From the NCBI GenBank assembly GCA_025451045.1, contig JANWLD010000003.1, positions 5,690-69,689 on the forward strand: a DNA stretch of 64,000 bases, given 5' to 3'. The translations under genes were made by a program, and so were the position numbers. Shown in pieces: positions 3,912 through 52,363 of the stretch. Numbering within the stretch: the first letter of the stretch is position 1; the number at the start of each line of letters is the position of its first letter. The DNA comes from Candidatus Saccharimonadales bacterium. GTDB taxonomy: Bacteria > Patescibacteriota > Saccharimonadia > Saccharimonadales > 2-12-FULL-41-12. Below the pieces are notes generated by a model. That model worked only from the letters and a program-made list of their open reading frames with translations, did no database searches and had not been told where the DNA came from.

Positions 3912-6900
3912 ATGGCCGCTACAAAAATTAAAAAATGTCAGATGTGTTTAGCCTTGTTCACGGCAACAAGGAAGGATGCTAAGACTTGCTCTGCCACCTG
4001 TCGTAAGCGCTTGCACAGGACATTACAGGCCAATACTGTTCAAGAAAAAGTTGCTAAGGTCGAAAGGGTAGTCAGCGAGGAATTCCACCGCCTGGCAGGC
4101 AGTTTGCTGGGAAACCATGTGGCTTTTGAGCCGCTTTTGTTATCTGACGAGACTGGCAGTATACCGGTAGTAGAGGCGCCACCGGAGACTACCGAAAACA
4201 ACTTAGCTTCGACGGATCCTGTAGTTGCCCCTCCAACATGGGCAGAAGGAGAAGCCCACCAGCTTGCATCGGTAGCTGCGCCGGTTTCTGTAAGTCCTGC
4301 TGCACCTGCTCCGGCACCTGCGCAGCCGGCGCCTACCCAACCCTTACATCAACCGGGTAATGTTTTTACACCTGATTCTGCCGCTCCTCAGGCCAGTACT
4401 ACACCTGTAGCGGCAGAGACCACTACGAATAGTACCAATAGTGACTCTCTGGAATCAGAACAAAAAACAACTTCTAACCAGAATCTGCCAACCGATATAA
4501 CAAACCAAACTATACAGCCAACAGCCACAAACCCATCAAACGAATTAAATAATCAGTTGGGAACAGCGGCGGCCCAGCAACGCGTAGATTTATTCAGTAT
4601 GGCTTCCAGTTCCGGGCCAGTAGCCGTAACAGATAAACAGGCCGATACTTATTCGCCTTTGAATTTCATCAAAGGTATATTTGGGCTTGGAAATTCTGAA
4701 GCTAGCCGCAAACGGCGTAATTGGGCTCTTGGACTGGTTTTACCCCTGTTTCTTATCGGCATAGGCGGCTCGATATTTTTCAGTTTGCAGGAAAAAAACC
4801 ACCAGTTGGCATCAAACCAGCAACAGGCTGAACCATCCGGCCCGGCCAAACCGATTAACTTTAGCGACGGCTATAAATTGTCAACAAACGTACCTCTGGA
4901 AGCCAATCAATCAATAATCATTTCGCCGACCGCTCAGCCGAAAGACCTGCAAAAAGGGCAGATTTTCTTCGATCAGACGGCAAATGAGCTATTTTACTAT
5001 AACGGAACAGAGGTTATAGGTCTGAATCCTTCGACTATCACTATTAACGGCCAAGGCGGCGATGTCGCGCTTGGTTCGGGACTCGGTTTCTCTGGCGGTA
5101 CACTTTCTAACAGCGGCGTAACAGGCATAAACGGCACAGCGAACCAAATAAACGTAAACCATGCCACAGGCAGTGTTACCCTTAGCTTGCCTCAGAATAT
5201 TGGTACCGCTTCGACACCGACATTTGCCGGGCTTAATTTGGCTTCCGCATTGCCGGTTAGCGAGGGCGGCACTGGCGCGACAAGCTTTGCGGCAAACACA
5301 GTTCTTCTTGGCAATGGCTCGGGTGCTTTGCAATCGACCAACGTTGGCTCCACCGGTGAGTGCTTGATAATAGACAGCGGAGGAACACCAACTTTTCAGA
5401 ACTGTGCTAGTGGGGGCGGCGTTTTTGCTGGAGGTTCACAGACCCCGGGAACTTTAACCAAATTTGACACCACAACCAACCAGATAGTTGACTCTCTTGT
5501 CAGTGAATCTGGCAGTACTGTTACGGTAAACGGCGACTTGTCTATAACAGGCACGACCAGCGGTAACGGTTCCGGATTGACCGACCTGAACGCTAGCCAG
5601 TTGACTTCCGGTACCATACCTTCTGCCAGAGTAACTGGAAACTATACCGGCATCACTGGTACAGGTGCTTTAACAACCGGTTCTATAGCTTCTGGTTTTG
5701 GCACTATTTCTACCGGCAATAACATTACTACTAGTGCTACTATACAGGGCGGCGTAGTCAATGCTACCACTACTTTACAACTAGGCGGTACAAACATTAA
5801 CACCGGCGGTACTTTGTCCAATGTAGCTTATTTGGACCAGGACAATACTCTCACCGGGCATAACTTGTTCCAAAACTTCTCTAATTCCACAACAGCATTT
5901 CAAATACAGAATTCCACCGGCACTTCTAACCTGTTTGTAGCTGATACTACAAATACTCGTATAGGTATTGGTACCGCCGGTCCCGGTTATAGGCTGGATG
6001 TCCAAGGCGGAGACATTAACACCAGCGGTATGTATAGAGCCAATGGCTCGCAAATCAGCAGTGCCAACCTGAGCAATGATGCCAATCTGGCCAAAATTAA
6101 TGGCAGTAACATCTTTAGTGCGGCCAATACATTCAGTAGTACGGTAGCAATCCAGGGAGCTAACAGCCTGACACTGGGTACCGCCAGCAATGTCGGCAGT
6201 GTTATTTTCCGGGATGGTGCCAGTGCCAACACCGGCACGCTTCAACTGGAAGGTACTTTAGGCGGCAACGTTACCTACAATCTGCCGACAAGCACGGGTA
6301 CCCAAACTGTCTGTACGATAGAAACCGGCAATTGTGCCGGCTCAGGCTCCGGGGTCACTGGCTCTGGTACTATCAACAAACTGGCTAAGTTTACTGATGG
6401 CCAAGAAATTGGTGATTCTAGCATTACCGACGATGGCTCTACGGTTACTGTATCTGCCAGCCAGGTTATCCAAGGCGCCGCTGGCCTGACTATCGGTGCC
6501 AACGCTGTCAATGGCCAGTTGGTGCTTAAAAACAGCAGTAACGCTAACACCTTGACCCTTCAAAGTGGTGTTACTACCAGTAACTTGACCCTAACTTTGC
6601 CTACGGGAGACGGCTCTAACGGTTACTGTCTGAAGACTAATGGCAGCGGCATATTGGCATTTGCAAGCTGTACCGGCGGACCCGGTGGAGGCGTAACCTC
6701 AGTTAATGCTCTATCAGGTACTTTGAACTTAGAAGGGACAGCAAACCAGATTAGTGTCAGCAGCGCCGGTGATACTATAACGCTATCTTTGCCGCAAGAT
6801 ATTAATATCGGCGGTAATGCTGCCTTTAGAACGATTACCCTTACCGGCGCTGACACTGCCGACAACCTGATAGTAGCCAACGCTCTCAGCGGGGCTACTG

Positions 6901-9900
6901 GTAAGCTGTTAGACCTCAAGGTCAATAATGTAAGTAAAGTTACGATTGATGCCAGCGGTAATATTAATACCGTAGGCCAGTATCAGGTCAACGGCTTGCA
7001 AATCAGCAGTGCCAATCTGAGCAATGATGCCAATCTGGCCAAACTGGACGGAACTGGTCCCCAAACTTTCACTGGCAACAATCTCTTTAAATCTGACTCC
7101 ACAACGGCCTTCCAAGTACAAAACTCGGCCGGCACCTCCAACTTATTTGTAGCTGATACGACGAATACGCGTATAGGTATCGGTACTCCTACACCGGGTT
7201 ATACTCTAGATGCTAATGGGGATATTAACACCAGTGGTGTCTATCGGATTGGCGGTAATACTATCTGTTCGGCTTCCGGCTGTACTGCAACTTCCGGCTC
7301 AGGCAGTTATGTACAAAACGGTACTGTTATGCAGACAGCCAATTTTAATATCCAAAGCGCCGCCGCCGGCTCTGTAACAGCTGTTATTCAAGGGGCCAAC
7401 TCACAGAGCGCTGATTTGCTTCAGCTGAAGACCAGCACTCCGTTTACTGTCATGTCAGTAGGCGCTACGGGCGCTGCTCTATTTAAAAATTCCGCCGATT
7501 CCACCGCTGCTTTCCAAATCCAAAACGCCGGGGGTCAAAGTCTATTCGTGGCCAATACTACAGCCCAACAGATAGCCATAGGCCCAGCTGCCATTCCTGC
7601 TAATGGAGTTCTAACTATTGGCACAAACACCACAGCCACCAGTGGGGGTATCTACTTTGGTACGGATACGAATCTATACCGTTCAGCAGGTGCTACATTG
7701 ACAACGGATACTGCTCTAACGGTGGGAGGCACATTAGCTGTTGCCGGTGGTGTTTCCGGCGGCGGGACAGGCGCATCTGGTGGAACGGGCGGTGGAGCTT
7801 CTGGAGATGATGGTGGTGCGGGAGGTGGCGCTATTGGTACAGTCAACGGCGGAAGTAGTACAGGCATAGATACTGGCATTACTGGTGCTCAGAGTATCGA
7901 TATTTCCGGACTCTTTGCTGTATTAACCAACGTGGGAGGCTTTCCTACTACCAGTCCTGGTGCTGGTAGTCCAACCGGAAGTGGTGTAACTGCTAATATA
8001 AACCATGGTGGTAGTGCTACCGGATTTGGTTGTGGCGGCGGCGGCGCTGGCTTCTATGGAGGCAATGGCGGTAATGGATTATACGGAGGTGGTGGTGGAG
8101 GAGCGGCAGGCTTCAGTGCTACTAACATGACAGGTGGCGCAGGCGGCCAAGGAGTAGTTGTTATAAGTCCTGTCGGTGGCACTAATGTAGTTAAAACCTC
8201 TGGAAGTTCTTATACTGTACCTGCGGGTATTACAACTATCAAAGTCTGGGCTATCGGCGCGGGTGGTGGTGGTGGTGGAGCTACCGACATTGACCCAAGT
8301 TCGGGGGGCGGCGGCGGCGCTGGTGGAGTTGCCTATAGAACTTTTGTAGTTGTACCAGGCAATACCATTTCCTATAGTTTAGGAACTGGAGGAGCAGGAG
8401 GAATCGACACTAATAATGGAACGGATGGAGGCAGTACTACTTTCACCGTAGGGGCAACCACAATCACGGCGAACGGCGGCGCAGGAGGCAAATATAATAA
8501 TGCAGCTACAAATAACGGAGGCACCTTTTCTAGTGGAAATACCGGTTCGGTAGTAGTTAACGGCGGCCTTACCGTTACAGGAAATACAACACTATTCCAG
8601 AACTATACTAACTCCACAACAGCTTTCCAAGTTCAGAATACCGCGGGTACTAACATTTTCAATGTTGATACAACTAACTCAAAAATTGGTACTGCCAATA
8701 CCACTGTTGCTTCTACTGATTCAGCCGCTCTAACCATTAAGTCTGGTGATGCCAGCGGTAGCACATCAAACTCTGGTGCTGTTACGATTGATTCCGGCAC
8801 GGCCACTGGCACGGCAGGTAACATAAGTATCGGTACCGGCGCATATGCCCATAATGTCACCATAGGTAACACTACTGGTAGCTCAGCCGTGACCATCCAA
8901 GGCGGCACTGGCGCTATAAATATCGGCACCCAAGCTGTAGCCGACACTATAACTATTGGCAATAGCACCGGCGCTAGCTCGGTTGTTATAAACAACGGTA
9001 CTGGTGCCTTGAACATCGGAACAAACGCCATTGCCCATACTATTACACTGGGCAACAGCACTGGCGCTACATCTATTGTCGCCAACTGTGGCACTGGTGC
9101 CTGTAGCTTCGGTACCAATGCTATAGCCCACACTACGACGGTGGGTTCATTAACCGGTGCTGCCACCACCACGATCCAAGGCGGTACCGGCGGTGTCAAC
9201 CTTGGCACCGGCGGCATAGCTAACACCATTCAGATCGGTAACACTACTGGCGGTGTGGCCCAGACTATCAATATCGGCAATAATGGTACCGGCGGTTCCA
9301 CTAACACCGTAGTCATAGGCTCAACCATTGCAGGAGCCACAACATTGCAAAGCGCAGGAGGAGTGTCAATAACTACTCTTGGCTCTGCTGATACAGCGAC
9401 CTTCTTGTGCCGCAACAGTAGCAACATTATAGCTACCTGTACTTCTTCTGGTACATCTTTTAACCAGAGTGGCAACAGTTTCGGCGCCACAGCTACATTG
9501 GGTACCACTGACAATAACGGCCTGAACATAATAACCAACAGTGCCACCGTGGCCAGCCTGAGCAATAGCGGCGCCGCTCTCTTCAAAAACGCCTCTAACT
9601 CAACAGCCGGTTTCCAGGTACAAAACAGTTCGGGCAACGAACTTCTAACAGTCGATACTACTAACAGCAAGATTATATTGGGCAAAGCCAATACGGTGAA
9701 TGGTACCATTGACTTCAAGAGCAGCAGCTCGGCCTATACCGTTACCTTGCAAGCTGGCGCGACTGGCTCTACCAACCCTAGTTTCACGTTGCCGACAGCT
9801 GATGGCACAACCGGTCAATGTTTGCAGACCAATGGTAGCGGCGTGCTATCATTTGGCGCTTGTATTGGTGTCGGTACAACGGGGACATTACAGCAATCTT

Positions 9901-10877
9901 ATGATACCGGTGCAAGCATCACCACGTCCGATGCGCGCGATATTAGCATCACGTTGGCTAATACTGCCACTGATAGCAATTTCATAGTCAACACTGCCGC
10001 CAGCTCGACTTCTAAGTTTGCTATCCAAAGCGCTGGTACTGACGCGTTTTCCATCACCAACGTTGCCAGCGCAGAAGGTTCGGCCCTGTTCAAGAACAAA
10101 ACTGATAATACTACTGGTTTCCAAGTCCAAAATTCATCAGGCAATGCATTACTCACCGCTGATACTACTAACACACGCTTATATGTAGGCGTTGTAGCGG
10201 GCTCGACTACCGGCACGTCTCTAGTGCTAAGCAATGATACGAACGCGACCTACAGCGCAGGTACTGCCACGAACGCGCCAACCGAGGTAGACGGAGCGAT
10301 GTTCTATAGCTCTACGAACCATAGTTTCTTATGTGGTACGGCCGGATCGTGGCAGACCTGCACAGGACTGCTATATTCGAATACGTCTGCCCCGTCAGCG
10401 GTCAACACATGTACCACAGCCTGCGCAGCCTTCAACGTACCTGCTGCAATCCCGGCCAATTATTGCCAAGCAGGCCGGGTAATCCGTCTGACCGCTAGAG
10501 GCATATGGTCCAGTGCGAACGCTTCCATAGCATTTGGTATTTACTATGGAACCGATGGTACAACTAAAACGAATGATACTCTGCTGGGGGATGCGACCCA
10601 GGCGACCCTAGCCACGCTAGACGCGAACAACTGGGGCTGGTCGCTGGATACGACGATAATATGTTTTGACACGACCCATATGATGGCTGAAACGGTAGAA
10701 ACATCTCGAGTCAGCGCTACCGCCACCACTACCAACGCCACTTACACGACTAATACCTCCTCTAGTACCTCAGTTACTTCCAATTCCGCGAAGAATCTGT
10801 ATGTATTCCCGGCGTTCAGTACATCTGCAGCCGGTAATACAGCAACACTTCAGCAATTAGTGGTTACTGGCAACTAG
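3912..10877 (+). CDS. Giant single-pass membrane/surface protein (2,321 aa): N-terminal Cys4 zinc ribbon, disordered linker, TM helix, repetitive ectodomain with a glycine-rich domain
   Basis: Uninterrupted 6.97-kb ORF.
- Zinc ribbon: C9-x2-C12...C26-x3-C30 (nt 3936-4001).
- Linker: P/A/T/Q-rich.
- TM helix: WALGLVLPLFLIGIGGSIFFSL (nt 4722-4787).
- Repeats: six copies of a module containing ST(T/A)AFQ(V/I)QN...L(F/L)xxDTTN(T/S)(R/K)IGIG.
- Poly-Gly domain: nt ~7740-8530.
- C-terminus: Cys-containing Ser/Thr-rich domain. Confidence 0.85.
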   Translation: MAATKIKKCQMCLALFTATRKDAKTCSATCRKRLHRTLQANTVQEKVAKVERVVSEEFHRLAGSLLGNHVAFEPLLLSDETGSIPVVEAPPETTENNLASTDPVVAPPTWAEGEAHQLASVAAPVSVSPAAPAPAPAQPAPTQPLHQPGNVFTPDSAAPQASTTPVAAETTTNSTNSDSLESEQKTTSNQNLPTDITNQTIQPTATNPSNELNNQLGTAAAQQRVDLFSMASSSGPVAVTDKQADTYSPLNFIKGIFGLGNSEASRKRRNWALGLVLPLFLIGIGGSIFFSLQEKNHQLASNQQQAEPSGPAKPINFSDGYKLSTNVPLEANQSIIISPTAQPKDLQKGQIFFDQTANELFYYNGTEVIGLNPSTITINGQGGDVALGSGLGFSGGTLSNSGVTGINGTANQINVNHATGSVTLSLPQNIGTASTPTFAGLNLASALPVSEGGTGATSFAANTVLLGNGSGALQSTNVGSTGECLIIDSGGTPTFQNCASGGGVFAGGSQTPGTLTKFDTTTNQIVDSLVSESGSTVTVNGDLSITGTTSGNGSGLTDLNASQLTSGTIPSARVTGNYTGITGTGALTTGSIASGFGTISTGNNITTSATIQGGVVNATTTLQLGGTNINTGGTLSNVAYLDQDNTLTGHNLFQNFSNSTTAFQIQNSTGTSNLFVADTTNTRIGIGTAGPGYRLDVQGGDINTSGMYRANGSQISSANLSNDANLAKINGSNIFSAANTFSSTVAIQGANSLTLGTASNVGSVIFRDGASANTGTLQLEGTLGGNVTYNLPTSTGTQTVCTIETGNCAGSGSGVTGSGTINKLAKFTDGQEIGDSSITDDGSTVTVSASQVIQGAAGLTIGANAVNGQLVLKNSSNANTLTLQSGVTTSNLTLTLPTGDGSNGYCLKTNGSGILAFASCTGGPGGGVTSVNALSGTLNLEGTANQISVSSAGDTITLSLPQDINIGGNAAFRTITLTGADTADNLIVANALSGATGKLLDLKVNNVSKVTIDASGNINTVGQYQVNGLQISSANLSNDANLAKLDGTGPQTFTGNNLFKSDSTTAFQVQNSAGTSNLFVADTTNTRIGIGTPTPGYTLDANGDINTSGVYRIGGNTICSASGCTATSGSGSYVQNGTVMQTANFNIQSAAAGSVTAVIQGANSQSADLLQLKTSTPFTVMSVGATGAALFKNSADSTAAFQIQNAGGQSLFVANTTAQQIAIGPAAIPANGVLTIGTNTTATSGGIYFGTDTNLYRSAGATLTTDTALTVGGTLAVAGGVSGGGTGASGGTGGGASGDDGGAGGGAIGTVNGGSSTGIDTGITGAQSIDISGLFAVLTNVGGFPTTSPGAGSPTGSGVTANINHGGSATGFGCGGGGAGFYGGNGGNGLYGGGGGGAAGFSATNMTGGAGGQGVVVISPVGGTNVVKTSGSSYTVPAGITTIKVWAIGAGGGGGGATDIDPSSGGGGGAGGVAYRTFVVVPGNTISYSLGTGGAGGIDTNNGTDGGSTTFTVGATTITANGGAGGKYNNAATNNGGTFSSGNTGSVVVNGGLTVTGNTTLFQNYTNSTTAFQVQNTAGTNIFNVDTTNSKIGTANTTVASTDSAALTIKSGDASGSTSNSGAVTIDSGTATGTAGNISIGTGAYAHNVTIGNTTGSSAVTIQGGTGAINIGTQAVADTITIGNSTGASSVVINNGTGALNIGTNAIAHTITLGNSTGATSIVANCGTGACSFGTNAIAHTTTVGSLTGAATTTIQGGTGGVNLGTGGIANTIQIGNTTGGVAQTINIGNNGTGGSTNTVVIGSTIAGATTLQSAGGVSITTLGSADTATFLCRNSSNIIATCTSSGTSFNQSGNSFGATATLGTTDNNGLNIITNSATVASLSNSGAALFKNASNSTAGFQVQNSSGNELLTVDTTNSKIILGKANTVNGTIDFKSSSSAYTVTLQAGATGSTNPSFTLPTADGTTGQCLQTNGSGVLSFGACIGVGTTGTLQQSYDTGASITTSDARDISITLANTATDSNFIVNTAASSTSKFAIQSAGTDAFSITNVASAEGSALFKNKTDNTTGFQVQNSSGNALLTADTTNTRLYVGVVAGSTTGTSLVLSNDTNATYSAGTATNAPTEVDGAMFYSSTNHSFLCGTAGSWQTCTGLLYSNTSAPSAVNTCTTACAAFNVPAAIPANYCQAGRVIRLTARGIWSSANASIAFGIYYGTDGTTKTNDTLLGDATQATLATLDANNWGWSLDTTIICFDTTHMMAETVETSRVSATATTTNATYTTNTSSSTSVTSNSAKNLYVFPAFSTSAAGNTATLQQLVVTGN
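6050..6095 (+). repeat. Internal 46-nt direct repeat, copy 1 (encodes QISSANLSNDANLAK)
   Basis: 45/46 identical to nt 6998-7043. Flanking module sequence is ~80% identical by eye. Confidence 0.9.
6998..7043 (+). repeat. Internal 46-nt direct repeat, copy 2
   Basis: 45/46 identical to nt 6050-6095. Confidence 0.9.
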
Positions 10878-27964: not shown

Positions 27965-30760
27965 ATGAAAACAACCAGCTTAAACGTGGGTAGGCTTTTT
28001 ACTAAACCCAAAACGAAGGCCTACGACCAGCTCAAATGGTCAAAAAAGGACTCTATTATCGTTAACCCGATGACGGACACTCCTGTATTTGAACAAAAGA
28101 ACGTCGAATTCCCGGACAATTGGTCGCTAAACGCGATTAATATCGTCGCGCAAAAATATTTTACCGGTACGCCCGGTACCAAAAGCCGCGAAAGTTCGAT
28201 GAAGCAACTGATTGACAGGGTCGTTGATACGATTACCCGGCATGGCATACAAGAAGATTACTTTGACAGCGAAGCCGAAGCCGAGGATTTTAAAGAGGAA
28301 CTGAAATATATTTTGGCCACCCAGCGGGCGGCATTCAACTCGCCGGTTTGGTTCAATATCGGCGCGCCGGAACGAGCCCAACAGGCCAGCGCCTGCTTTA
28401 TCCTGGGAGTTGAAGACACTATGCCGTCGATTCTTAACTGGTACCGTGAAGAAGGTATGATCTTTAAAGGCGGTTCCGGTTCGGGAATCAACCTGAGCGG
28501 TATCCGTTCTTCGGTTGAATCGCTGGGTAAAAGCGCCGGAACGGCTTCAGGGCCGCTGAGTTTCATGCGCGGCGCGGACTCATCAGCCGGCGCTATAAAA
28601 AGCGGTGGAAAGACCCGCAGGGCCGCCAAGATGGTGATTTTAAACGCGGACCACCCCGACGTTGAGGAATTCATCTGGTGCAAGGCTATCGAAGAACGCA
28701 AAGCCAGAGTTTTGGAACAGAATGGTTTTGATATGAGCCTGGACGGCAAGGACTCTTTCTCGGTCCAGTACCAAAATGCCAATAATTCGGTCCGGGTTAC
28801 CGACGAATTCATGCAAGCCGTAATCGAAGACAAGGAATGGGACTTAAAAGCGGTCACCACCGGAAAGAGAGTCAAGACGGTTAAAGCCAAGGAACTATTC
28901 AGGGAATTCGCCAAGGCGGCGTGGGAGTGCGCCGACCCGGGAATGCAGTACGACACCACTATCAACTATTGGCATACTACACCGGTTGCCGGCAGAATAA
29001 ACGGCTCCAACCCTTGTAGTGAATACATGCATCTGGATAATTCGGCCTGTAATCTGGCTTCAATCAACCTGCTCAAATACCTTAGGGAAAACGGTACATT
29101 CGATGTTAAGTCGTTCAAACATACCGTAGAGTTAGTATTCAGCGCGCAGGAAATCCTGGTCGGTTACTCATCCTACCCAACAGAGAGTATCACCAAGAAC
29201 GCCAAAGCTTACCGCGAACTAGGACTAGGCTATGCCAACCTTGGGGCACTTTTGATGGCTCAAGGTTTGCCTTATGATTCCGACGAAGGACGAGCACAAG
29301 CCGCTGCTATAACCGCGTTGATGACAGGGCACGCTTATGCCACTAGTGCCAAACTGGCTCGCAAAGTCGGTCCGTTCACCGGTTTTCACAAGGATCAAAA
29401 AGGTATGCTCAAAGTGTTAAATCAGCACAAAGATGCCGTAAAGGATATAGATGCCAGCCTGGTCTCAGAAGAACTTTTAAGCGCGGCCACCAACTCTTGG
29501 GATGAAGCTGTAGAGCTGGCAGAACTATACGGAGTACGCAATTCCCAGGCTAGCGTACTGGCGCCTACCGGGACTATCGGCCTGATGATGGACTGTGATA
29601 CTACCGGAATCGAACCGGATTTGGGCTTGGTTAAGCTCAAGAAATTGGTCGGCGGCGGGACCATGAGTATCGTAAACAGAACGGTTCCCCGAGCACTAAA
29701 AGTACTCGGATATTCTGCAACCGAAGTCGATGATGTAATTGAGTATATTGATGTAGAAAAGACTATAACAGGCGCTCCTCACCTCAAGAAAGAACATCAA
29801 GCCGTCTTTTCCTGCTCCATGGGAGACAATGCCATACATTACTCAGGCCATGTAAAAATGATGTCGGCGGTACAACCATTTATTTCCGGCGCGATAAGCA
29901 AAACCGTAAATATGCCGGAAGATGTGAGTATTGAAGATGTCGAACAGCTTCATATTGACGCCTGGAAACTGGGGCTCAAAGCCGTGGCGATTTACCGGGA
30001 TAACTGTAAAGTAGCCCAACCGCTGGCCATGGCAAAGAAAGAGGGACAGGAAGAAAAAACCGGACAACCGGTAGTTTCAATAGCATCTGATCAGCAGTTA
30101 GTGGTTAAAGGTCCTATCCGAAGAGAAATGCCAAAGACTCGGACAGCTACGACTTTTGAGTTCAACGTTGCCGGCAGCAAGGGCTTTATCACCGTAGGAG
30201 AATTTGAAGACGGTACTCCAGGTGAAATCTTTGTAAAAATAGCCAAGCAAGGTTCTACTTTGTCCGGAGTGATGGAATCACTGGCTATATCCGTAAGTTA
30301 CGGCCTACAATACGGCGTGCCTCTGAAGAGCTATGTCCATGCGTTAACCAATATGACTTTCGCGCCGGCCGGACTTACCGACGATTCTGAAATCAAGACC
30401 GCGACTTCGCTCGTAGATTACATCTTTAAACGGTTGGCCCATACTTACTTGTCGTTTGATGACAAGCTTGAACTGGGACTGGCATCAATAGATGACATGC
30501 CTGAAACGCAAACCAGCTTGCTTGAAGAAAGTAAATCTAGCGTACCGGAAGTCAAAGGACCTGTGTTGCTGAAGGAAGACCCGGTAATTAAAGAACAAAT
30601 TAAGCCTGCTGAAACTCCAGCGCAAGAGGACAACACGCCTAAAAAATCCGTCAAGAAAGATGACACCGCCCCTATGTGCTATAACTGCGGTAATCAGACG
30701 CAGCGTTCGGGTTCGTGCTATGTCTGTACATCCTGCGGCTCCACAACTGGCTGCTCCTAG
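27965..30760 (+). CDS. nrdJ: Ribonucleotide reductase, class II (adenosylcobalamin-dependent)
   Basis: 931 aa. Active-site loop GSNPCSEY...SACNLASINL. C-terminal Cys tail CYNCG...CYVCTSCGSTTGC. Confidence 0.9.
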   Translation: MKTTSLNVGRLFTKPKTKAYDQLKWSKKDSIIVNPMTDTPVFEQKNVEFPDNWSLNAINIVAQKYFTGTPGTKSRESSMKQLIDRVVDTITRHGIQEDYFDSEAEAEDFKEELKYILATQRAAFNSPVWFNIGAPERAQQASACFILGVEDTMPSILNWYREEGMIFKGGSGSGINLSGIRSSVESLGKSAGTASGPLSFMRGADSSAGAIKSGGKTRRAAKMVILNADHPDVEEFIWCKAIEERKARVLEQNGFDMSLDGKDSFSVQYQNANNSVRVTDEFMQAVIEDKEWDLKAVTTGKRVKTVKAKELFREFAKAAWECADPGMQYDTTINYWHTTPVAGRINGSNPCSEYMHLDNSACNLASINLLKYLRENGTFDVKSFKHTVELVFSAQEILVGYSSYPTESITKNAKAYRELGLGYANLGALLMAQGLPYDSDEGRAQAAAITALMTGHAYATSAKLARKVGPFTGFHKDQKGMLKVLNQHKDAVKDIDASLVSEELLSAATNSWDEAVELAELYGVRNSQASVLAPTGTIGLMMDCDTTGIEPDLGLVKLKKLVGGGTMSIVNRTVPRALKVLGYSATEVDDVIEYIDVEKTITGAPHLKKEHQAVFSCSMGDNAIHYSGHVKMMSAVQPFISGAISKTVNMPEDVSIEDVEQLHIDAWKLGLKAVAIYRDNCKVAQPLAMAKKEGQEEKTGQPVVSIASDQQLVVKGPIRREMPKTRTATTFEFNVAGSKGFITVGEFEDGTPGEIFVKIAKQGSTLSGVMESLAISVSYGLQYGVPLKSYVHALTNMTFAPAGLTDDSEIKTATSLVDYIFKRLAHTYLSFDDKLELGLASIDDMPETQTSLLEESKSSVPEVKGPVLLKEDPVIKEQIKPAETPAQEDNTPKKSVKKDDTAPMCYNCGNQTQRSGSCYVCTSCGSTTGCS

Positions 30761-30773
30761 AGCAATCCGCCGC

Positions 30774-30810
30774 GCCGGCCTGCTTCCGGCAGAGCCGGAA
30801 CTCCGCCGGC
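30774..30810 (+). repeat. Conserved hairpin motif, copy B (14 nt after the nrdJ stop)
   Basis: GCCGGC-CTGC-TTCCGGC-AGA-GCCGGAA-CTCC-GCCGGC. Same inner stem and internal loop as copy A, with a different but still complementary outer stem. Confidence 0.8.
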
Positions 30811-31080
30811 ACTCTCGATGCTGAGCGTTGTTATGAACTCCAATGCTCCTTCATCGTATTAATTATACGATTCAGTGCGCGTTTCGCTCATGCCTAGCTC
30901 AAGCACCGAGCGGCCTTACTCTAGGTGTAATTCTATAAGGCTGCTCTTCCCTAAGACAAAAACTGTGTCGTACATTTGTCTGTATAACCCTAGGTTGTTT
31001 TTCCTTGTGCTTCATACTTCATACGCAATACCTCATACGACTGCTTGACCCTGTAACCTAGAAGCTATAACCTAAGTACT

Positions 31081-34778: not shown

Positions 34779-35552
34779 TTGAAACAAAAAAAGACGATTG
34801 CGGTATTAAACCAAAAGGGCGGAGTGGGCAAGACCACGACCTCTATAAATTTGGCAGCTTATCTGGCTAAAGAGAAAAGGCGGGTACTGGTAGTAGATGC
34901 CGATCCGCAGGGCAATGCCACGAGCGGCCTTGGTATCATCAGCGGCCGTCTCAAAGCCAGCTTGGCGGATGTTTTAACTGGGGCGGATGGCTCGAAAAGC
35001 GTTATTATCAAGACGAAAATAAAAGACCTCGATTTATTGCCGTGTGATAACCGTCTGGCCAGTTCCGAAGTAGACCTGGCCGGTATGCAGAACCGGGAGT
35101 CGGCGTTAAAAAATGTATTGAGTGATGCAACAGCCTATGACTACGTGTTAATTGACTGCCCGCCGTCACTGGGCCTGCTTACCATTAACGCCTTGGTGGC
35201 TGCCGAGCTGGTGCTAATACCGGTTCAGGCGGAATATTACGCGCTGGAAGGTTTGAGCCAACTCCTGCAAGTGATGCAACAGGTTAGAAAAGGGCTTAAT
35301 TCGGATTTGGAGCTGCTCGGGGTAGTGATGACAATGTTTGACAAGCGGACAAGCCTGGCCACCCAGGTATATAATGAAGTAAAGCGGCATTTCTCGGACA
35401 AGCTGTTTGATGTCGTTATACCGCGCAACGTGCGGCTGGCCGAAGCGCCCAGCTTTGGCAAGCCGATATCGGAACATGACAAATGGAGTAAAGGCGCGCG
35501 GGCCTATAAGGCGTTAGCCAAGGAGATAATCACCCGTTGTGAGCAAGAATAA
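34779..35552 (+). CDS. parA: Chromosome partitioning ATPase ParA/Soj
   Basis: Deviant Walker A NQKGGVGKTT. TTG start. Confidence 0.85.
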   Translation: MKQKKTIAVLNQKGGVGKTTTSINLAAYLAKEKRRVLVVDADPQGNATSGLGIISGRLKASLADVLTGADGSKSVIIKTKIKDLDLLPCDNRLASSEVDLAGMQNRESALKNVLSDATAYDYVLIDCPPSLGLLTINALVAAELVLIPVQAEYYALEGLSQLLQVMQQVRKGLNSDLELLGVVMTMFDKRTSLATQVYNEVKRHFSDKLFDVVIPRNVRLAEAPSFGKPISEHDKWSKGARAYKALAKEIITRCEQE

Positions 35553-36402
35553 AGGCTTAGGCAAGGATTTCGGCAGCCTGTTGCCGGATGATTTTGACCG
35601 ATCGCTACTACTCGATAAAAAAGACCGGCTGTACAAAGTAGCAATGACCGAGATAAAAGCCAATCCGAACCAACCGCGGAAACACTTTGATAAAGTAGCG
35701 CTTGATGAGCTGGCGGCCTCGATAAAGACCTACGGTTTATTGCAGCCGATAGTCCTGTCGCCTGAGGGGGACGGATATGTAATCATCGCCGGGGAACGGC
35801 GCTTCCGGGCGGCGAAATTAGTTGGCCTGCAGGAGATAAACGCTCTGGTTCGCTCCAGCGAGGAGTTGGAACGAATAGAAATCGGACTGGTTGAAAACGT
35901 CCAGCGAGAGGACTTATCACCTTTAGAACAAGCAATTTCTATCGTACGGCTACGCGAGCAGTTCAACATGGAATACAAAGACATCGCCAAGCGACTGGGC
36001 AAGGGATTGTCGACGATTACCAATATTGTCAGACTGTTGCAACTACCGGAAAAAGCCAGAAAAGCCCTGGAAACCAAGCAGATAAGCGAAGGCCATGCCC
36101 GCACCATCCTGTCGCTCAAAGACAGTCCGAGCCTGCAAGAAGAACTTTTGGACGGAATCATCAAAAAAGGCTGGTCGGTCCGGGCGGCCGAGCGGTTTGC
36201 CGCCGACGCCAAACAGCGCGAAGGCGTAGGTACGCCGACCAAACTGGTCGTTTCCAGCCAATATCTGGAAAAATCCAAAGATTTGGCCAAAAAACTGTCG
36301 GCTCAGGTCAATATCAAGCCGCTTCGCTATGGCGGGCGGATAGAAATTGGCTATAAATCGGAAAAAGAACTGGCTAAAATCCTAGACGATCTGATGAAAT
36401 AA
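35539..36402 (+). CDS. parB: Chromosome partitioning protein ParB/Spo0J
   Basis: ParB box IIAGERRFRAAK, an HTH region, and a GTG start overlapping parA. Confidence 0.85.
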   Translation: MSKNKGLGKDFGSLLPDDFDRSLLLDKKDRLYKVAMTEIKANPNQPRKHFDKVALDELAASIKTYGLLQPIVLSPEGDGYVIIAGERRFRAAKLVGLQEINALVRSSEELERIEIGLVENVQREDLSPLEQAISIVRLREQFNMEYKDIAKRLGKGLSTITNIVRLLQLPEKARKALETKQISEGHARTILSLKDSPSLQEELLDGIIKKGWSVRAAERFAADAKQREGVGTPTKLVVSSQYLEKSKDLAKKLSAQVNIKPLRYGGRIEIGYKSEKELAKILDDLMK

Positions 36403-36531
36403 CCCCAACCGGCTCATCTCCCAAGGTGAGCGTTTCGCGCGCGACGTAAGTAATTCTATCGCGTGCTGCACTTGGCCCTCACGGACTCACTTGGTAGACA
36501 ACCCGGTTGAGGTTTAAACCAGAAAGTTCCT

Positions 36532-36606
36532 CGGGTGGCTCTTTTGGAAGGCTTCCGCGGATGAATATCGTGGAAATCCGTGGAATACCAAAAGAGCCAG
36601 GACCCG
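36532..36606 (+). repeat. 75-nt structured palindromic element, copy 1 (candidate ncRNA or REP/MITE-like)
   Basis: CGGGT/ACCCG plus GGCTCTTTTGG/CCAAAAGAGCC outer stems, a 10-bp inner stem TTCCGCGGAT/ATCCGTGGAA, and a 13-nt loop GAATATCGTGGAA. Near-identical to the reverse complement of 44834-44908. Confidence 0.8.
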
Positions 36607-36631
36607 GGGAAGAAGCCTAAAGCCGGTTAGG

Positions 36632-37270
36632 CTAGAACTTCTTAACGGAACTGAACGGGAATATCCGGACTGACAAGGTGCCGACGATATCTTTGGAATC
36701 AATCGGCCCGAAAACCCGCGAGTCGAGCGAATTGGCGCGATTATCACCCATAACGAAGACTTCGCCGGGCTTGACGATATAATCGGTTTCGCCCTTGGTA
36801 AGGTTGACGGTAGCTGATTCGGGCCCGAGTTTATCGGGGTAAAAACCGTCGGGGTTTTCAGCATTATAAATGGTGGTGATGCCGTCTTTTACAACCACCC
36901 GGTCGCCCGGCAGGCCAATGACCCGCTTGATAAGCTGTTTGTTCTTGATTTCGAAATCAACCTGGCCTTCATAGTTGAAAACTACTATTGAATAACGCTT
37001 CGGGATATAGTCATGGCGGATTATCTTTGACCAAGTCTTGCCGGCTTTGACCACTATTAAACGGTCTTTATTATGCAGCGTCTGTTCCATACTTGGCCCG
37101 TCTACTTCATAAGATTGAAAGACGAAAACAGTCAAAAGAATAGCGATTATCGGAGCCAGAATTACTATTGAAAGCGTTGAAAACAGCTCTTTTTTGCCGC
37201 TGTGTTTCTTGCTCTCCGGTTGATGCTCTTCCGGTTCGGGCTTGTCCGTAGCTACGTTTATGCTATCCAT
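36632..37270 (-). CDS. lepB: Signal peptidase I
   Basis: S26 motifs DGPSME and VMGDNRANSLDSR. N-terminal TM. Confidence 0.9.
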   Translation of the reverse strand: MDSINVATDKPEPEEHQPESKKHSGKKELFSTLSIVILAPIIAILLTVFVFQSYEVDGPSMEQTLHNKDRLIVVKAGKTWSKIIRHDYIPKRYSIVVFNYEGQVDFEIKNKQLIKRVIGLPGDRVVVKDGITTIYNAENPDGFYPDKLGPESATVNLTKGETDYIVKPGEVFVMGDNRANSLDSRVFGPIDSKDIVGTLSVRIFPFSSVKKF

Positions 37271-44267: not shown

Positions 44268-44828
44268 ATGGAAAACCAAGCTACCTCTAAACTGAACGCG
44301 GGCATAGACAAAGCCGTAACTTATTTTGAGGACGAGCTGAAGAAAATGCGCACTGGCCGCGCCCATCCCGGCATGTTGGACGGAATAAAGGCCGAAGCTT
44401 ACGGGCAGGAAATGCCGCTTATCCAACTGGCGACTATAAGCGCGCCGGAACCGCAGTTGCTACAAATAACGCCATTTGACCCGAGCAACTTGCAAGCCAT
44501 AACAGCAGCTATACGAGATAACCAGGCGCTGGGGATGAACCCGATGGATGACGGGCATGTCGTAAGAGTACCGATTCCGCCGCTGACTGAGGAAAGACGC
44601 CGCCAAATTGCCAAACAGCTGGGCGAAAAAGTTGAAGACTGCATGATAAGCATGCGTGGCGCGCGTCATGAAGCGATGAAAGACCTGGAACAAGCCAAAA
44701 AAGATAAAGATATCAGCGAAGATGAGTTTAAGCGCACAATAAAGCAAATTGACGAGATAATGGCCAAAACGAAGGCTGACGTCGATGCCAAGGCTAAAGC
44801 CAAAGAAAAAGACATTATGTCTGTTTAG
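44268..44828 (+). CDS. frr: Ribosome recycling factor
   Basis: 186 aa, typical RRF (RTGRAHPGMLDGIKAEAYG..., VRVPIPPLTEERR). Confidence 0.9.
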   Translation: MENQATSKLNAGIDKAVTYFEDELKKMRTGRAHPGMLDGIKAEAYGQEMPLIQLATISAPEPQLLQITPFDPSNLQAITAAIRDNQALGMNPMDDGHVVRVPIPPLTEERRRQIAKQLGEKVEDCMISMRGARHEAMKDLEQAKKDKDISEDEFKRTIKQIDEIMAKTKADVDAKAKAKEKDIMSV

Positions 44829-44833
44829 TTTTT

Positions 44834-44908
44834 CGGGTCCTGACTCTTTTGGTATTCCATAAACTTCCACGATATTTGTTTATGGAAGCCTTCCAAAAGA
44901 GCCACCCG
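44834..44908 (-). repeat. 75-nt structured palindromic element, copy 2 (inverted relative to copy 1)
   Basis: Reverse complement matches 36532-36606, except that the inner-stem pairs are replaced (TTCCATAAAC/GTTTATGGAA). Begins 6 nt after the frr stop. Confidence 0.8.
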
Positions 44909-44943
44909 AAAATTCTTGGAGTCACTGAGGTATAATTTAGAGC

Positions 44944-46065
44944 ATGTCAGTGTTCTTGCTTATCCTAAGCTTATTATTATTTGTTGGCTTGGTTGTAGCC
45001 CATGAATGGGGTCATTTCGTCGTGGCTAGACGCGGTGGGGTAGAAGTCGAGGAATTCGGCATAGGCTTTCCGCCAAAAGCATGGGCCAAAAAAATCAAGA
45101 CTAAAAAAAGCCAGTTTCTGCTAAGCGTAAACCTATTGCCGCTAGGCGGTTTCGTGCGGCTCAAAGGAGAGCATGATTCAGACACCCGACCAGCCAGTTT
45201 CGGCGCCGCGCCGCTCGGTACCAAAGTCAAAATTATGCTGGCCGGAGTAGCAGTCAATCTGCTTATAGCCTATCTGATGTTAGTAGTATTGGCGGCAACC
45301 GCTATGCCGAAGATTATCGACAATCAATACACTGTAGCCAGCGATACTAAGGTTATCCAGCATGTCCAAAACGAAGATGTAGTTTTAACAGATAGCGTAG
45401 TATCCGGTTCTCCGGCCGAGAAAGCCGGGATAAAGCCGGGCGACAGAATACTTCAGCTGGATGGGCAAACTATATCATCACCTGAACAGATACCGCCGGT
45501 TACAGAACACAACGCAGGCAAGACCATAACCGTGAAGGTAGACAGAAATGGCAAAGAAGCTGTTTATCGGGTCACGCTGAACCAGCAAAACACAGGCGAC
45601 GGTTATCTTGGTATTTCCAGCAGTTCAGGACGTAGCGGCATAGAACTGCAGCGCTCAACCTGGTCTTCGCCGATAGTCGCGGCAGGACTTTTAAAACAAT
45701 TTTCCGAACTGACTTTTAAGGGCCTTGGTACGGCACTCTCAAGCTTAAGCAGGGGAGATACCAAGACAGCCAGCGAGCAGGTATCCGGCCCGGTTGGCAT
45801 ATTTTATATTTTGCGCGAAGGCGGCAAGCTGGGACTTAGTTTTATCCTGATGATAATTGCTATTATCTCGCTGACTTTGGCGCTAATAAACATATTGCCG
45901 ATTCCGGCTTTGGACGGTGGCCGGCTGTTTGTAACGCTACTGTTTCGGGCCATGAAAAAACCGCTTACCAAACGCCGGGAAGATTTTATTCATGGTTCCG
46001 GATTTGCGTTTTTGATGCTGTTATTTATTTTGGTGACCTTTGTAGATATAAAGCGGTTTTTCTAA
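44944..46065 (+). CDS. rseP: RIP metalloprotease RseP (site-2 protease, M50)
   Basis: HEWGHFVVAR, a PDZ segment (GSPAEKAGIKPGDRIL), and C-terminal TM with NILPIPALDGG. Confidence 0.9.
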   Translation: MSVFLLILSLLLFVGLVVAHEWGHFVVARRGGVEVEEFGIGFPPKAWAKKIKTKKSQFLLSVNLLPLGGFVRLKGEHDSDTRPASFGAAPLGTKVKIMLAGVAVNLLIAYLMLVVLAATAMPKIIDNQYTVASDTKVIQHVQNEDVVLTDSVVSGSPAEKAGIKPGDRILQLDGQTISSPEQIPPVTEHNAGKTITVKVDRNGKEAVYRVTLNQQNTGDGYLGISSSSGRSGIELQRSTWSSPIVAAGLLKQFSELTFKGLGTALSSLSRGDTKTASEQVSGPVGIFYILREGGKLGLSFILMIIAIISLTLALINILPIPALDGGRLFVTLLFRAMKKPLTKRREDFIHGSGFAFLMLLFILVTFVDIKRFF

Positions 46066-46872: not shown

Positions 46873-47016
46873 GCTTTACAAACTACTGCCTATGTATTAG
46901 AGTAATTAGCCTGATGATAACCATTAGTAAATCTAGTTTTATATTACCGCCAGCCCCGGAACGACACCGGAGGCTAAGTTAGAATCTAAATAAATTTAAA
47001 AAGAATCACACGCAAG

Positions 47017-47046
47017 CGGCCTCCGGGCCGTTTTTTATTTTTTGCG
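47017..47046 (+). terminator. Intrinsic terminator ~145 nt downstream of the CPBP gene
   Basis: CGGCC-TCCG-GGCCG followed by TTTTTTATTTTTT. Confidence 0.6.
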
Positions 47047-51502: not shown

Positions 51503-52363
51503 ATGGCAAAAACTGCCAGAAAACCATCAACTAAAAAAACAAAAGCAAAAAGCGCTGCAAAGCAACCGGCTGTCGCCGCCGCGGCCGCTAAACCCAAGGC
51601 AAACAAGGCGCTGACGCTTGAAAAACTTTATAAATTTAATCTGTTCGCTGCTGCCTCTAACCTGATTTTCGCGGTCGTCAGTGTGATATTTGTTTCCAGC
51701 CAAACAGTTGATTTTACTTGGGCTTATGCGACACAAGACACGCTGGCCGGCTCGACGCTTGGTCCGGCTTACCGGACATTTATGACAGTCGAAATACGTT
51801 ACTTGTTGGCAGCGGTATTTATCCTGTCTGCAATATTTTCATTGTTACTGGCTACGAAATTGCGCAAAAACTATGAGGCCAGCGTAAAGAACGCTGCGTC
51901 TGGCTGGCGCTGGCTGTTTTCGGGGATAACACTTGCCCTGACCTTAGAAATAGCAACCTTGCTGGCCGGTATTGGAGATATGATGACCCTAAAGCTGGTC
52001 GCTGGCCTTATATTGACAACTTCGCTTTTGGCTTTCATGAGCGAGCTGGCCAACAAAGGTACAAAAAAACAATACAGAGCCTTTGCCATCAGTGTTTTTA
52101 CCGGTGTAATCGCCTGGTTCCCGTTAGCTGGAAGCCTGCTGGGAACAACATTATATGGCATCAGCAATTTTGAGTGGTATGTTTATACCTTCGCAGTTGC
52201 CGTATTAGCCGGCTTTATCGGTATTGGCTGGAGCCAATATAAACACGCTCGTGACGGTGTTTCGGCCAAAGGCTATCTGCAACTGGAAGGCAGATACGTA
52301 TCAATCGATTTTCTTATCAAGCTCGCTGCTTTCTTAATCATTATCTCAGCCCTGCATAAATAA
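51503..52363 (+). CDS. Heliorhodopsin-family 7-TM protein (divergent)
   Basis: Seven hydrophobic helices. By-eye alignment to remembered heliorhodopsin 48C12 across TM1, TM3-TM4 and TM7 (YLQLEGRYVSIDFLIKLAAFL vs YLRGERAYIVLSLVAKSALAW). Lys273 falls at the Schiff-base position. Confidence 0.6.
   Translation: MAKTARKPSTKKTKAKSAAKQPAVAAAAAKPKANKALTLEKLYKFNLFAAASNLIFAVVSVIFVSSQTVDFTWAYATQDTLAGSTLGPAYRTFMTVEIRYLLAAVFILSAIFSLLLATKLRKNYEASVKNAASGWRWLFSGITLALTLEIATLLAGIGDMMTLKLVAGLILTTSLLAFMSELANKGTKKQYRAFAISVFTGVIAWFPLAGSLLGTTLYGISNFEWYVYTFAVAVLAGFIGIGWSQYKHARDGVSAKGYLQLEGRYVSIDFLIKLAAFLIIISALHK

Follow-up and report, generated by a model that had tools for sequence, protein, structure and literature searches.

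A 75-nt palindromic hairpin at three intergenic loci of Candidatus Saccharimonadales, a probable small insertion element of the MITE/REP kind

Introduction

Prokaryotic MITEs, among them QMITE2 of Coxiella, Correia/NEMIS and RUP, are small, non-coding sequences whose terminal inverted repeats form a very stable stem-loop; they occupy intergenic or 3′-UTR positions, are present or absent at orthologous sites, and cluster with other repeat families (PMC10969869). BOX, RUP and SPRITE elements cluster and insert into or next to one another (PMC10969869). REP/BIME sequences and the REP-like remnants of MITEs are extragenic palindromes with a shared consensus and no target-site duplication, are 3′-terminal or intercistronic in transcription units, and occur in clusters with other hairpin modules; the REPs of E. 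coli measure 14-40 nt (PMC12306157). Intrinsic terminators and terminator-like repeats of the SPRITE type place a stable hairpin directly past a stop codon. The genomes of Patescibacteria are very small, streamlined and generally repeat-poor, and no description of intergenic hairpin repeats in Saccharibacteria was found in the literature.

The hairpin described here, element A, was detected in a 64-kb stretch of Saccharimonadales DNA (the window) and is compared below with these systems. It resembles the MITEs in all of the features listed, the REP/BIME sequences in all but size, and the terminator-like repeats in having a stable hairpin directly past a stop codon. It differs from the MITEs in that neither a parent insertion sequence nor a transposase was found in the window, and no consistent target-site duplication or direct repeat adjoins the ends of its copies (a point short of decisive, given that old duplications may decay). 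Nor is it AT-rich (45-55% GC), and at 75 bp it stands at the small end of the MITE size range. With three known copies, two of them in the window, it is apparently far less numerous than classical REPs or MITEs. Compared with REPs, element A is longer and has a 13-nt loop and two internal loops, and no transposase or Y1/RAYT-type gene was seen among the window ORFs scanned with Pfam. REPs also carry a conserved 5′ GTAG-type tetranucleotide, which element A appears to lack. Unlike SPRITE-type repeats and intrinsic terminators, it has no 3′ U-tract on either strand. Assignment as a classical MITE was rejected for want of a target duplication, and assignment as a classical REP on grounds of size.

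Results

Structure and covariation of element A

The sequence-only reading had described a 75-nt hairpin occurring twice in the window, in opposite orientations, and both copies were recovered at the stated positions with the same fold, copy 1 on the plus strand between parB and lepB and copy 2 on the minus strand between frr and rseP (Table 1). A 20-mer (GGCTCTTTTGGAAGGCTTCC) and a 25-mer (GGAATACCAAAAGAGYCAGGACCCG) of the element each had two exact occurrences in the window and none in 100 shuffles. Copies 1 and 2 were identical at 64 of 75 positions (85%; alignment A1), the mismatched columns being 26, 27, 28, 29, 31, 32, 45, 47, 48, 49 and 66. Folding analyses predicted a shared 26-bp interrupted hairpin with a 13-nt apical loop, composed of the core helices 1-5/71-75, 6-16/57-67 and 22-31/45-54, with energies of -38.7 kcal/mol for copy 1 and -31.4 kcal/mol for copy 2 (z about -6). 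Terminal inverted repeats were present at the extreme ends (CGGGT/ACCCG) and were followed by GGCTCTTTTGG/CCAAAAGAGCC; in the two window copies and the third copy described below, these sequences were invariant save for column 66. At all three loci the 75-bp element was intergenic, in a short gap separating housekeeping genes, and contained stop codons in the frames read, i.e. it is non-coding.

Table 1. Positions of element A, neighbouring hairpins and flanking genes (window coordinates unless another sequence is named).
Feature	Position	Strand	Remarks
parB, upstream of copy 1	35539..36402	+	PF02195, PF17762
parB/lepB spacer, 229 nt	36403..36631		lineage-specific inserted DNA throughout; order: element B, element A, hairpin C
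Element B, second hairpin family, about 105 nt	36406..36510	+	homologues L005 3244-3349 and L007 632-741 (frr-rseP spacers)
Element A copy 1 (75-nt core hairpin)	36532..36606	+	covariance model R1, 106 bits
Hairpin C	36610..36644		insert GAAGAAGCCTAA pairs with last lepB codons and stop codon; read from sequence and spacer fold
lepB (signal peptidase I)	36632..37270	-	PF10502 in syntenic genes; stop codon 25 nt from copy 1
frr (ribosome recycling factor), upstream of copy 2	44268..44828	+	PF01765
Element A copy 2 (same core)	44834..44908	-	AT-rich inner stem AUAAAC/GUUUAU; R1, 102 bits
rseP-like M50 protease, downstream of copy 2	44944..46065	+	PF02163
Element A third copy, Candidatus Saccharimonadales MAG, murJ-lepA spacer	L002:7398-7472	minus	exact 20-mer scan

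Pairing in the inner stem was preserved as originally claimed. Pair counting gave four two-sided changes between copies 1 and 2 (27/49, 28/48, 29/47 and 31/45) and two single-sided changes, from G.U to A-U at 26/50 and from G-C to G.U at 7/66. Across the alignment of element A, 98.7% of cells were paired, versus 30-55% when the partners were slid. The helix continued 4-5 bp beyond the core into non-homologous flanks that were mutually complementary and not direct repeats (TTCCT/GGGAA for copy 1, TTTT/AAAA for copy 2, and CC/GG as the third such pair); including its flanks, the helix of copy 1 spans 36528-36610, about 83 nt.

All 11 differences between the window copies were transitions, in most of which copy 2 had gone from GC to AT; the extra flank pairs mirrored that pattern. 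Because the four double changes all occurred in copy 2, on a single branch, they are not independent events. The claim that six consecutive inner-stem positions had been replaced was correct in that the stem differs, but the A30-U46 pair and base U50 were unchanged, so that the replaced stretch comprises five and four positions and not six and six. The accompanying proposal that the inner stem is a specificity module was not borne out, since every difference was a transition and the third copy, L002, was intermediate at position 26 (A26 is common to L002 and copy 2), which points to stepwise G.U-mediated or template-switch compensation and not to a cassette swap. Template switching can yield multi-base compensatory changes in one event (PMC8794818). 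The changes clustered next to the loop and towards the outer end and spared the middle of the hairpin, a pattern that suggests two kinds of constraint: on the mid-hairpin a constraint of sequence, probably because it serves as a surface for recognition, and on the rest only one of pairing.

Distribution of element A

When 185,579 genomes, one per prokaryotic species, were scanned for an exact 20-mer, a single true match was obtained among these representatives, the L002 copy. It was identical to copy 1 at 70 of 75 positions (93%) and differed from it by G26A, which gives a Watson-Crick A26-U50 pair, by A34G and U40G in the apical loop, by U55A in the internal loop, and by C66A. L002 consequently carries G7xA66, a mismatch in both senses, and column 66 was variable across the three copies (C, U and A). 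With three changes among the 23 unpaired positions, the loops of element A are not invariant; the earlier statement that loops and outer stems are nearly identical was upheld between the window copies but not in L002, with its apical- and internal-loop changes.

Covariance-model scanning, which the sequence-only reading had proposed, was performed with model R1, built from the copies of element A. It found no other copy in about 280 kb comprising the window and the loci of relatives (about 215 kb from relatives), and the only additional copy was the one obtained by the 20-mer scan. A looser two-arm pattern produced nothing real in the metagenome collection, and there was no element match in viral contigs scanned with three patterns or in phage and plasmid collections. 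Scan matches in L001 (Algoriphagus) and L003 (metagenome) lacked the hairpin and were rejected as chance. Searches of the window against Rfam 15 placed only LSU and 5S rRNA above the gathering threshold, and the top permissive match to element A was mir-1284 (17.9 bits versus a threshold of 80, E = 0.96); the motif, unrecognised from the outset, thus matched no family at gathering or permissive thresholds. A tRNA/tmRNA scan found none. The relatives were annotated as Candidatus Saccharimonadales, in agreement with the initial guess of a patescibacterial host.

Copy 1 was nearer to L002 than to copy 2 of its own genome, indicating that subfamilies persist across genomes. The syntenic coding DNA of relatives was about 67-79% identical to that of the window. 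Set against this, the 93% identity between copies implies that the family is strongly constrained or has recently spread, and that it has at least two subtypes.

Genomic context and empty sites

Convergent parB and lepB flank copy 1 with their stop codons. Copy 2 follows the frr stop codon by 5 nt and is 22 nt ahead of a TATAAT hexamer (44931-44936) that is itself 7 nt before the rseP ATG; GTCACTGMGGTATAAT at the rseP locus is common to the window and L005. The L002 copy lies 29 nt past the murJ stop codon and 14 nt ahead of TGTTATAAT, which is 9 nt before the lepA start codon.

Orthologous loci were taken from relatives with 80-87% protein identity, and element A was missing from the orthologous sites at all three loci. 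The parB/lepB junction measured 4, 3, 1 and 0 nt in L008-L011 (80-84% ParB identity) versus 229 nt in the window. Against 115 nt in the window, the frr/rseP spacer of L006 (41 nt) and that of L004 (82 nt) were free of the element, and in L005 and L007 the spacer carried element B in place of element A. The murJ/lepA spacer, 141 nt in L002, had a length of 60 nt in both L012 and L013 and of 25 nt in L014, and the L002 spacer and promoter sequence around the 75-nt insert could still be aligned to that of relatives. Homology among the three copies ended sharply at the 75-nt core (alignment A4). These sharp borders show that element A is an insertion, and the empty sites in relatives that it arrived separately at three sites and is not an ancestral RNA gene. 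A functional link among lepB, rseP and lepA as envelope/secretion genes was left as coincidence because copy 1 lies downstream, not upstream, of lepB.

No more than 7-9 nt separated the TATAAT hexamers from the ATG of rseP or lepA (window 44931-44946; L002:7495-7512; the L012, L014, L005 and L006 spacers), and in the lepA spacers TGT preceded TATAAT (TGTTATAAT), a motif conserved across relatives. Such near-ATG hexamers suggest leaderless or nearly leaderless mRNAs and promoters not dependent on a -35 element.

The gene content of the window consisted of housekeeping genes only. A 2321-aa ORF at 3912-10877 had no Pfam match and contained internal DNA repeats of about 90-120 nt (5880-6095 versus 6955-7212, 77-81% identical). 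The ORF at 51503-52363 aligned by tblastx to L004:7936-8775 and L005:9343-10233, which belong to the heliorhodopsin family (PF18761) in those relatives.

Other hairpins in the window and its relatives

The conserved core of element B consisted of TGARCGTT, an 8-10-bp inner hairpin and the unpaired TGCACTTSGCCCTCACGGAYTCA, in that order. The conserved unpaired core measured 23 nt. The outer stems of element B were locus-specific and covarying, with 13 pairs changed on both sides among the three copies. Covariance model R2 for element B detected only these three copies in 173 kb, and element B had no Rfam match. Every copy shared the strand of the upstream gene and directly followed its stop codon; element B may be a better functional-RNA candidate than element A. 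At copy 1 the two elements adjoin, which is the same clustering as that of BOX, RUP and SPRITE (PMC10969869).

On the other side of copy 1, GAAGAAGCCTAA was an inverted near-copy of the last lepB codons, forming with them a hairpin that spans the lepB stop codon. To judge from its sequence, hairpin C looks like a template-switch product. CCGGTT(G)AGG flanked the element A segment on both sides (36504-36513 and 36622-36631), a repeat so short that it could be chance.

Two copies of a third hairpin family were present at 204-250 and 30763-30815, with the common core GCCTGCTTCCGGC-NGA-GCCGGAAC and different outer stems (GTAACTGC/GCAGTTAC versus GCCGGC/GCCGGC). One is located in the 23S-5S rRNA spacer and the other just past the stop codon of a 931-aa ORF ending at 30760. 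The 353-nt frr-rseP spacer of L007, the closest relative, contained element B followed by another long hairpin of about 150 nt (L007:768-915). Like element A, the latter begins with GGGTGGCTC, but its local alignment to element A scored 18, when shuffled sequences averaged 16 and reached 25; being no better than shuffles, it was taken as unrelated.

Strand polarity and terminator features

It had been argued that the imperfect pairs, G.U in one sense and A.C in the other, indicate an RNA of defined polarity. L002 removed this argument, with A26-U50 in place of the wobble and G7xA66 mismatched in either sense. In the proposed sense, the wobble-type pairs comprised three G.U and no A.C, including the flank pair of copy 1 (chance p about 0.125). 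Orientation relative to the nearest upstream stop codon was the same in three of three copies and was opposite to the proposed sense (p = 0.25). Weakly, then, the two polarity signals point opposite ways. The predicted folding energies of the two strands were 1-3 kcal/mol apart, whether computed for RNA or for DNA, and at two of the three loci (copy 2 and L002) the proposed sense runs antisense to each of the two flanking genes.

An intrinsic terminator was rejected because there was no U-tract on either strand at any copy. Read on either strand, copy 2 has a T-run before the hairpin and an A-run after it. A terminator-like scan of the window listed neither copy of element A and recovered canonical terminators, one of them at 47014-47043. 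A switch in which UUCC would pair instead with GGAA of the loop was also rejected, as L002 does not keep that pairing (alignment), and the sequences of the bulges do not seem to fit the K-turn or sarcin-ricin motifs.

Discussion

Element A is probably a small non-coding palindromic insertion element, the representative of a new low-copy family of the MITE/REP kind in a narrow Saccharimonadales group. The sequence-only reading had favored a structured RNA over a mere palindrome and had named a REP/MITE identity as the finding that would speak against it; with its empty sites the behavior of element A is REP/MITE-like, although no described family matched. A discrete 75-bp unit has landed independently in the parB/lepB, frr/rseP and murJ/lepA spacers, each time in a harmless place between a stop codon and the -10 of the next gene or a convergent stop. 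Copying would be performed by a putative enzyme supplied in trans that recognizes the invariant mid-hairpin, and the candidate recognition part comprises CGGGT/ACCCG, GGCTCTTTTGG/CCAAAAGAGCC, the internal loop AAGGC/WA, the bulged AGG and, at the foot of the inner stem, UUCC/GGAA. The four pairs beside the apical loop and the outermost pairs would be required only to pair and would drift via transitions, with pairing repaired by selection through G.U (G.T) intermediates or by one-step replication template switching between the arms. The best-supported conclusion is a lineage-restricted insertion element of this kind whose fold is maintained by selection or templated repair. After insertion the element would most probably be co-transcribed with the upstream gene and, like REPs, fold into a hairpin of great stability, 3′ or intercistronic in position. 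A replication-linked strand orientation like that of IS200/IS605 was rejected: GC skew was positive throughout about 12-64 kb, placing both window copies on one replichore, and their opposite orientations there run against a replication-strand explanation.

Against a mobile origin, the clustering of four compensatory pairs in an otherwise identical sequence could reflect functional constraint on an RNA. We judge it highly improbable, however, that element A is an independently transcribed, trans-acting structured small RNA, read as plus at locus 1 and minus at locus 2, whose inner stem would serve as an interchangeable specificity module. Such an RNA would fit the restriction of the four double compensatory pairs to the inner stem, the near-invariance of the 13-nt loop and outer stems between the window copies, and the wobbles G26.U50 in copy 1, G7.U66 in copy 2 and U.G in the copy 1 flank. 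It is hard to reconcile with L002, where changes at 3 of 23 unpaired positions and G7xA66 mean that the loops vary and the polarity signal is lost, or with a position antisense to both neighbors at copy 2 and L002. A search upstream of the two window copies revealed no sigma-70-like promoter, orthologous sites occur without the element, and a 6-nt stem segment is too short for a guide; the transition-only differences and the intermediate L002 imply gradual or templated drift in place of module exchange. Nor does element A behave as a conserved ncRNA gene, being absent at three of three orthologous loci with all four two-sided changes on the copy 2 branch. A minority chance is left to a cis-acting hairpin of the upstream mRNA, a 3′-UTR or intercistronic stabilizer or processing site in the sense opposite to that first proposed and kept by selection however it arrived, an explanation that partly overlaps with insertion of a mobile element. 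The element lies 5-29 nt past a stop codon at all three loci (frr, murJ and lepB) and does not vary in its orientation with respect to that gene, its pairing is maintained, and folding of the gene-sense strand yields -30 to -35 kcal/mol; REP elements, too, are classed as 3′-terminal or intergenic within operons (PMC12306157). The agreement of three orientations nevertheless has only p = 0.25, the imperfect pairs become A.C or U.C mismatches and not wobbles in this sense, and the three corresponding sites of relatives lack the element. A U-tract is, moreover, absent, and the order of T-run and A-run at copy 2 is wrong for a terminator in both directions.

A role at the level of DNA, just upstream of promoters and with TGGAA at 10-bp and 26-bp spacing, either as an inverted repeat bound by a regulator or nucleoid protein or as a cruciform, would be consistent with the position of the CGGGTGGCTC end of the element, which at copy 2 and L002 lies 14-22 bp upstream of the near-ATG TATAAT of rseP and lepA, with the threefold occurrence of TGGAA on one strand, and with GGAAGGCTTCC, itself palindromic. 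We regard this as highly improbable: copy 1, between convergent stops, has no promoter to serve, the promoters of relatives function without the element, and a regulator site needs neither 26 bp of intramolecular complementarity nor compensatory changes. There is likewise only a very slight chance that elements A and B together represent an undescribed class of mobile structured-RNA modules of defined polarity in Saccharimonadales, whose conserved loops and bulges would be the binding surface for a factor of host or parasite and whose freely covarying helices would tune or address that interaction. Were this true, the inner-stem change of copy 2 would be functional diversification and not drift.

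By themselves, compensatory changes between two copies of a palindromic repeat are no proof of an RNA gene. If element A is the mobile element that we consider probable, palindromic insertions between stop codon and promoter would mean that streamlined genomes still host non-autonomous mobile DNA. Such elements would be markers for recent genome change and a natural experiment for telling selection from template switching as the process that keeps hairpin arms paired.
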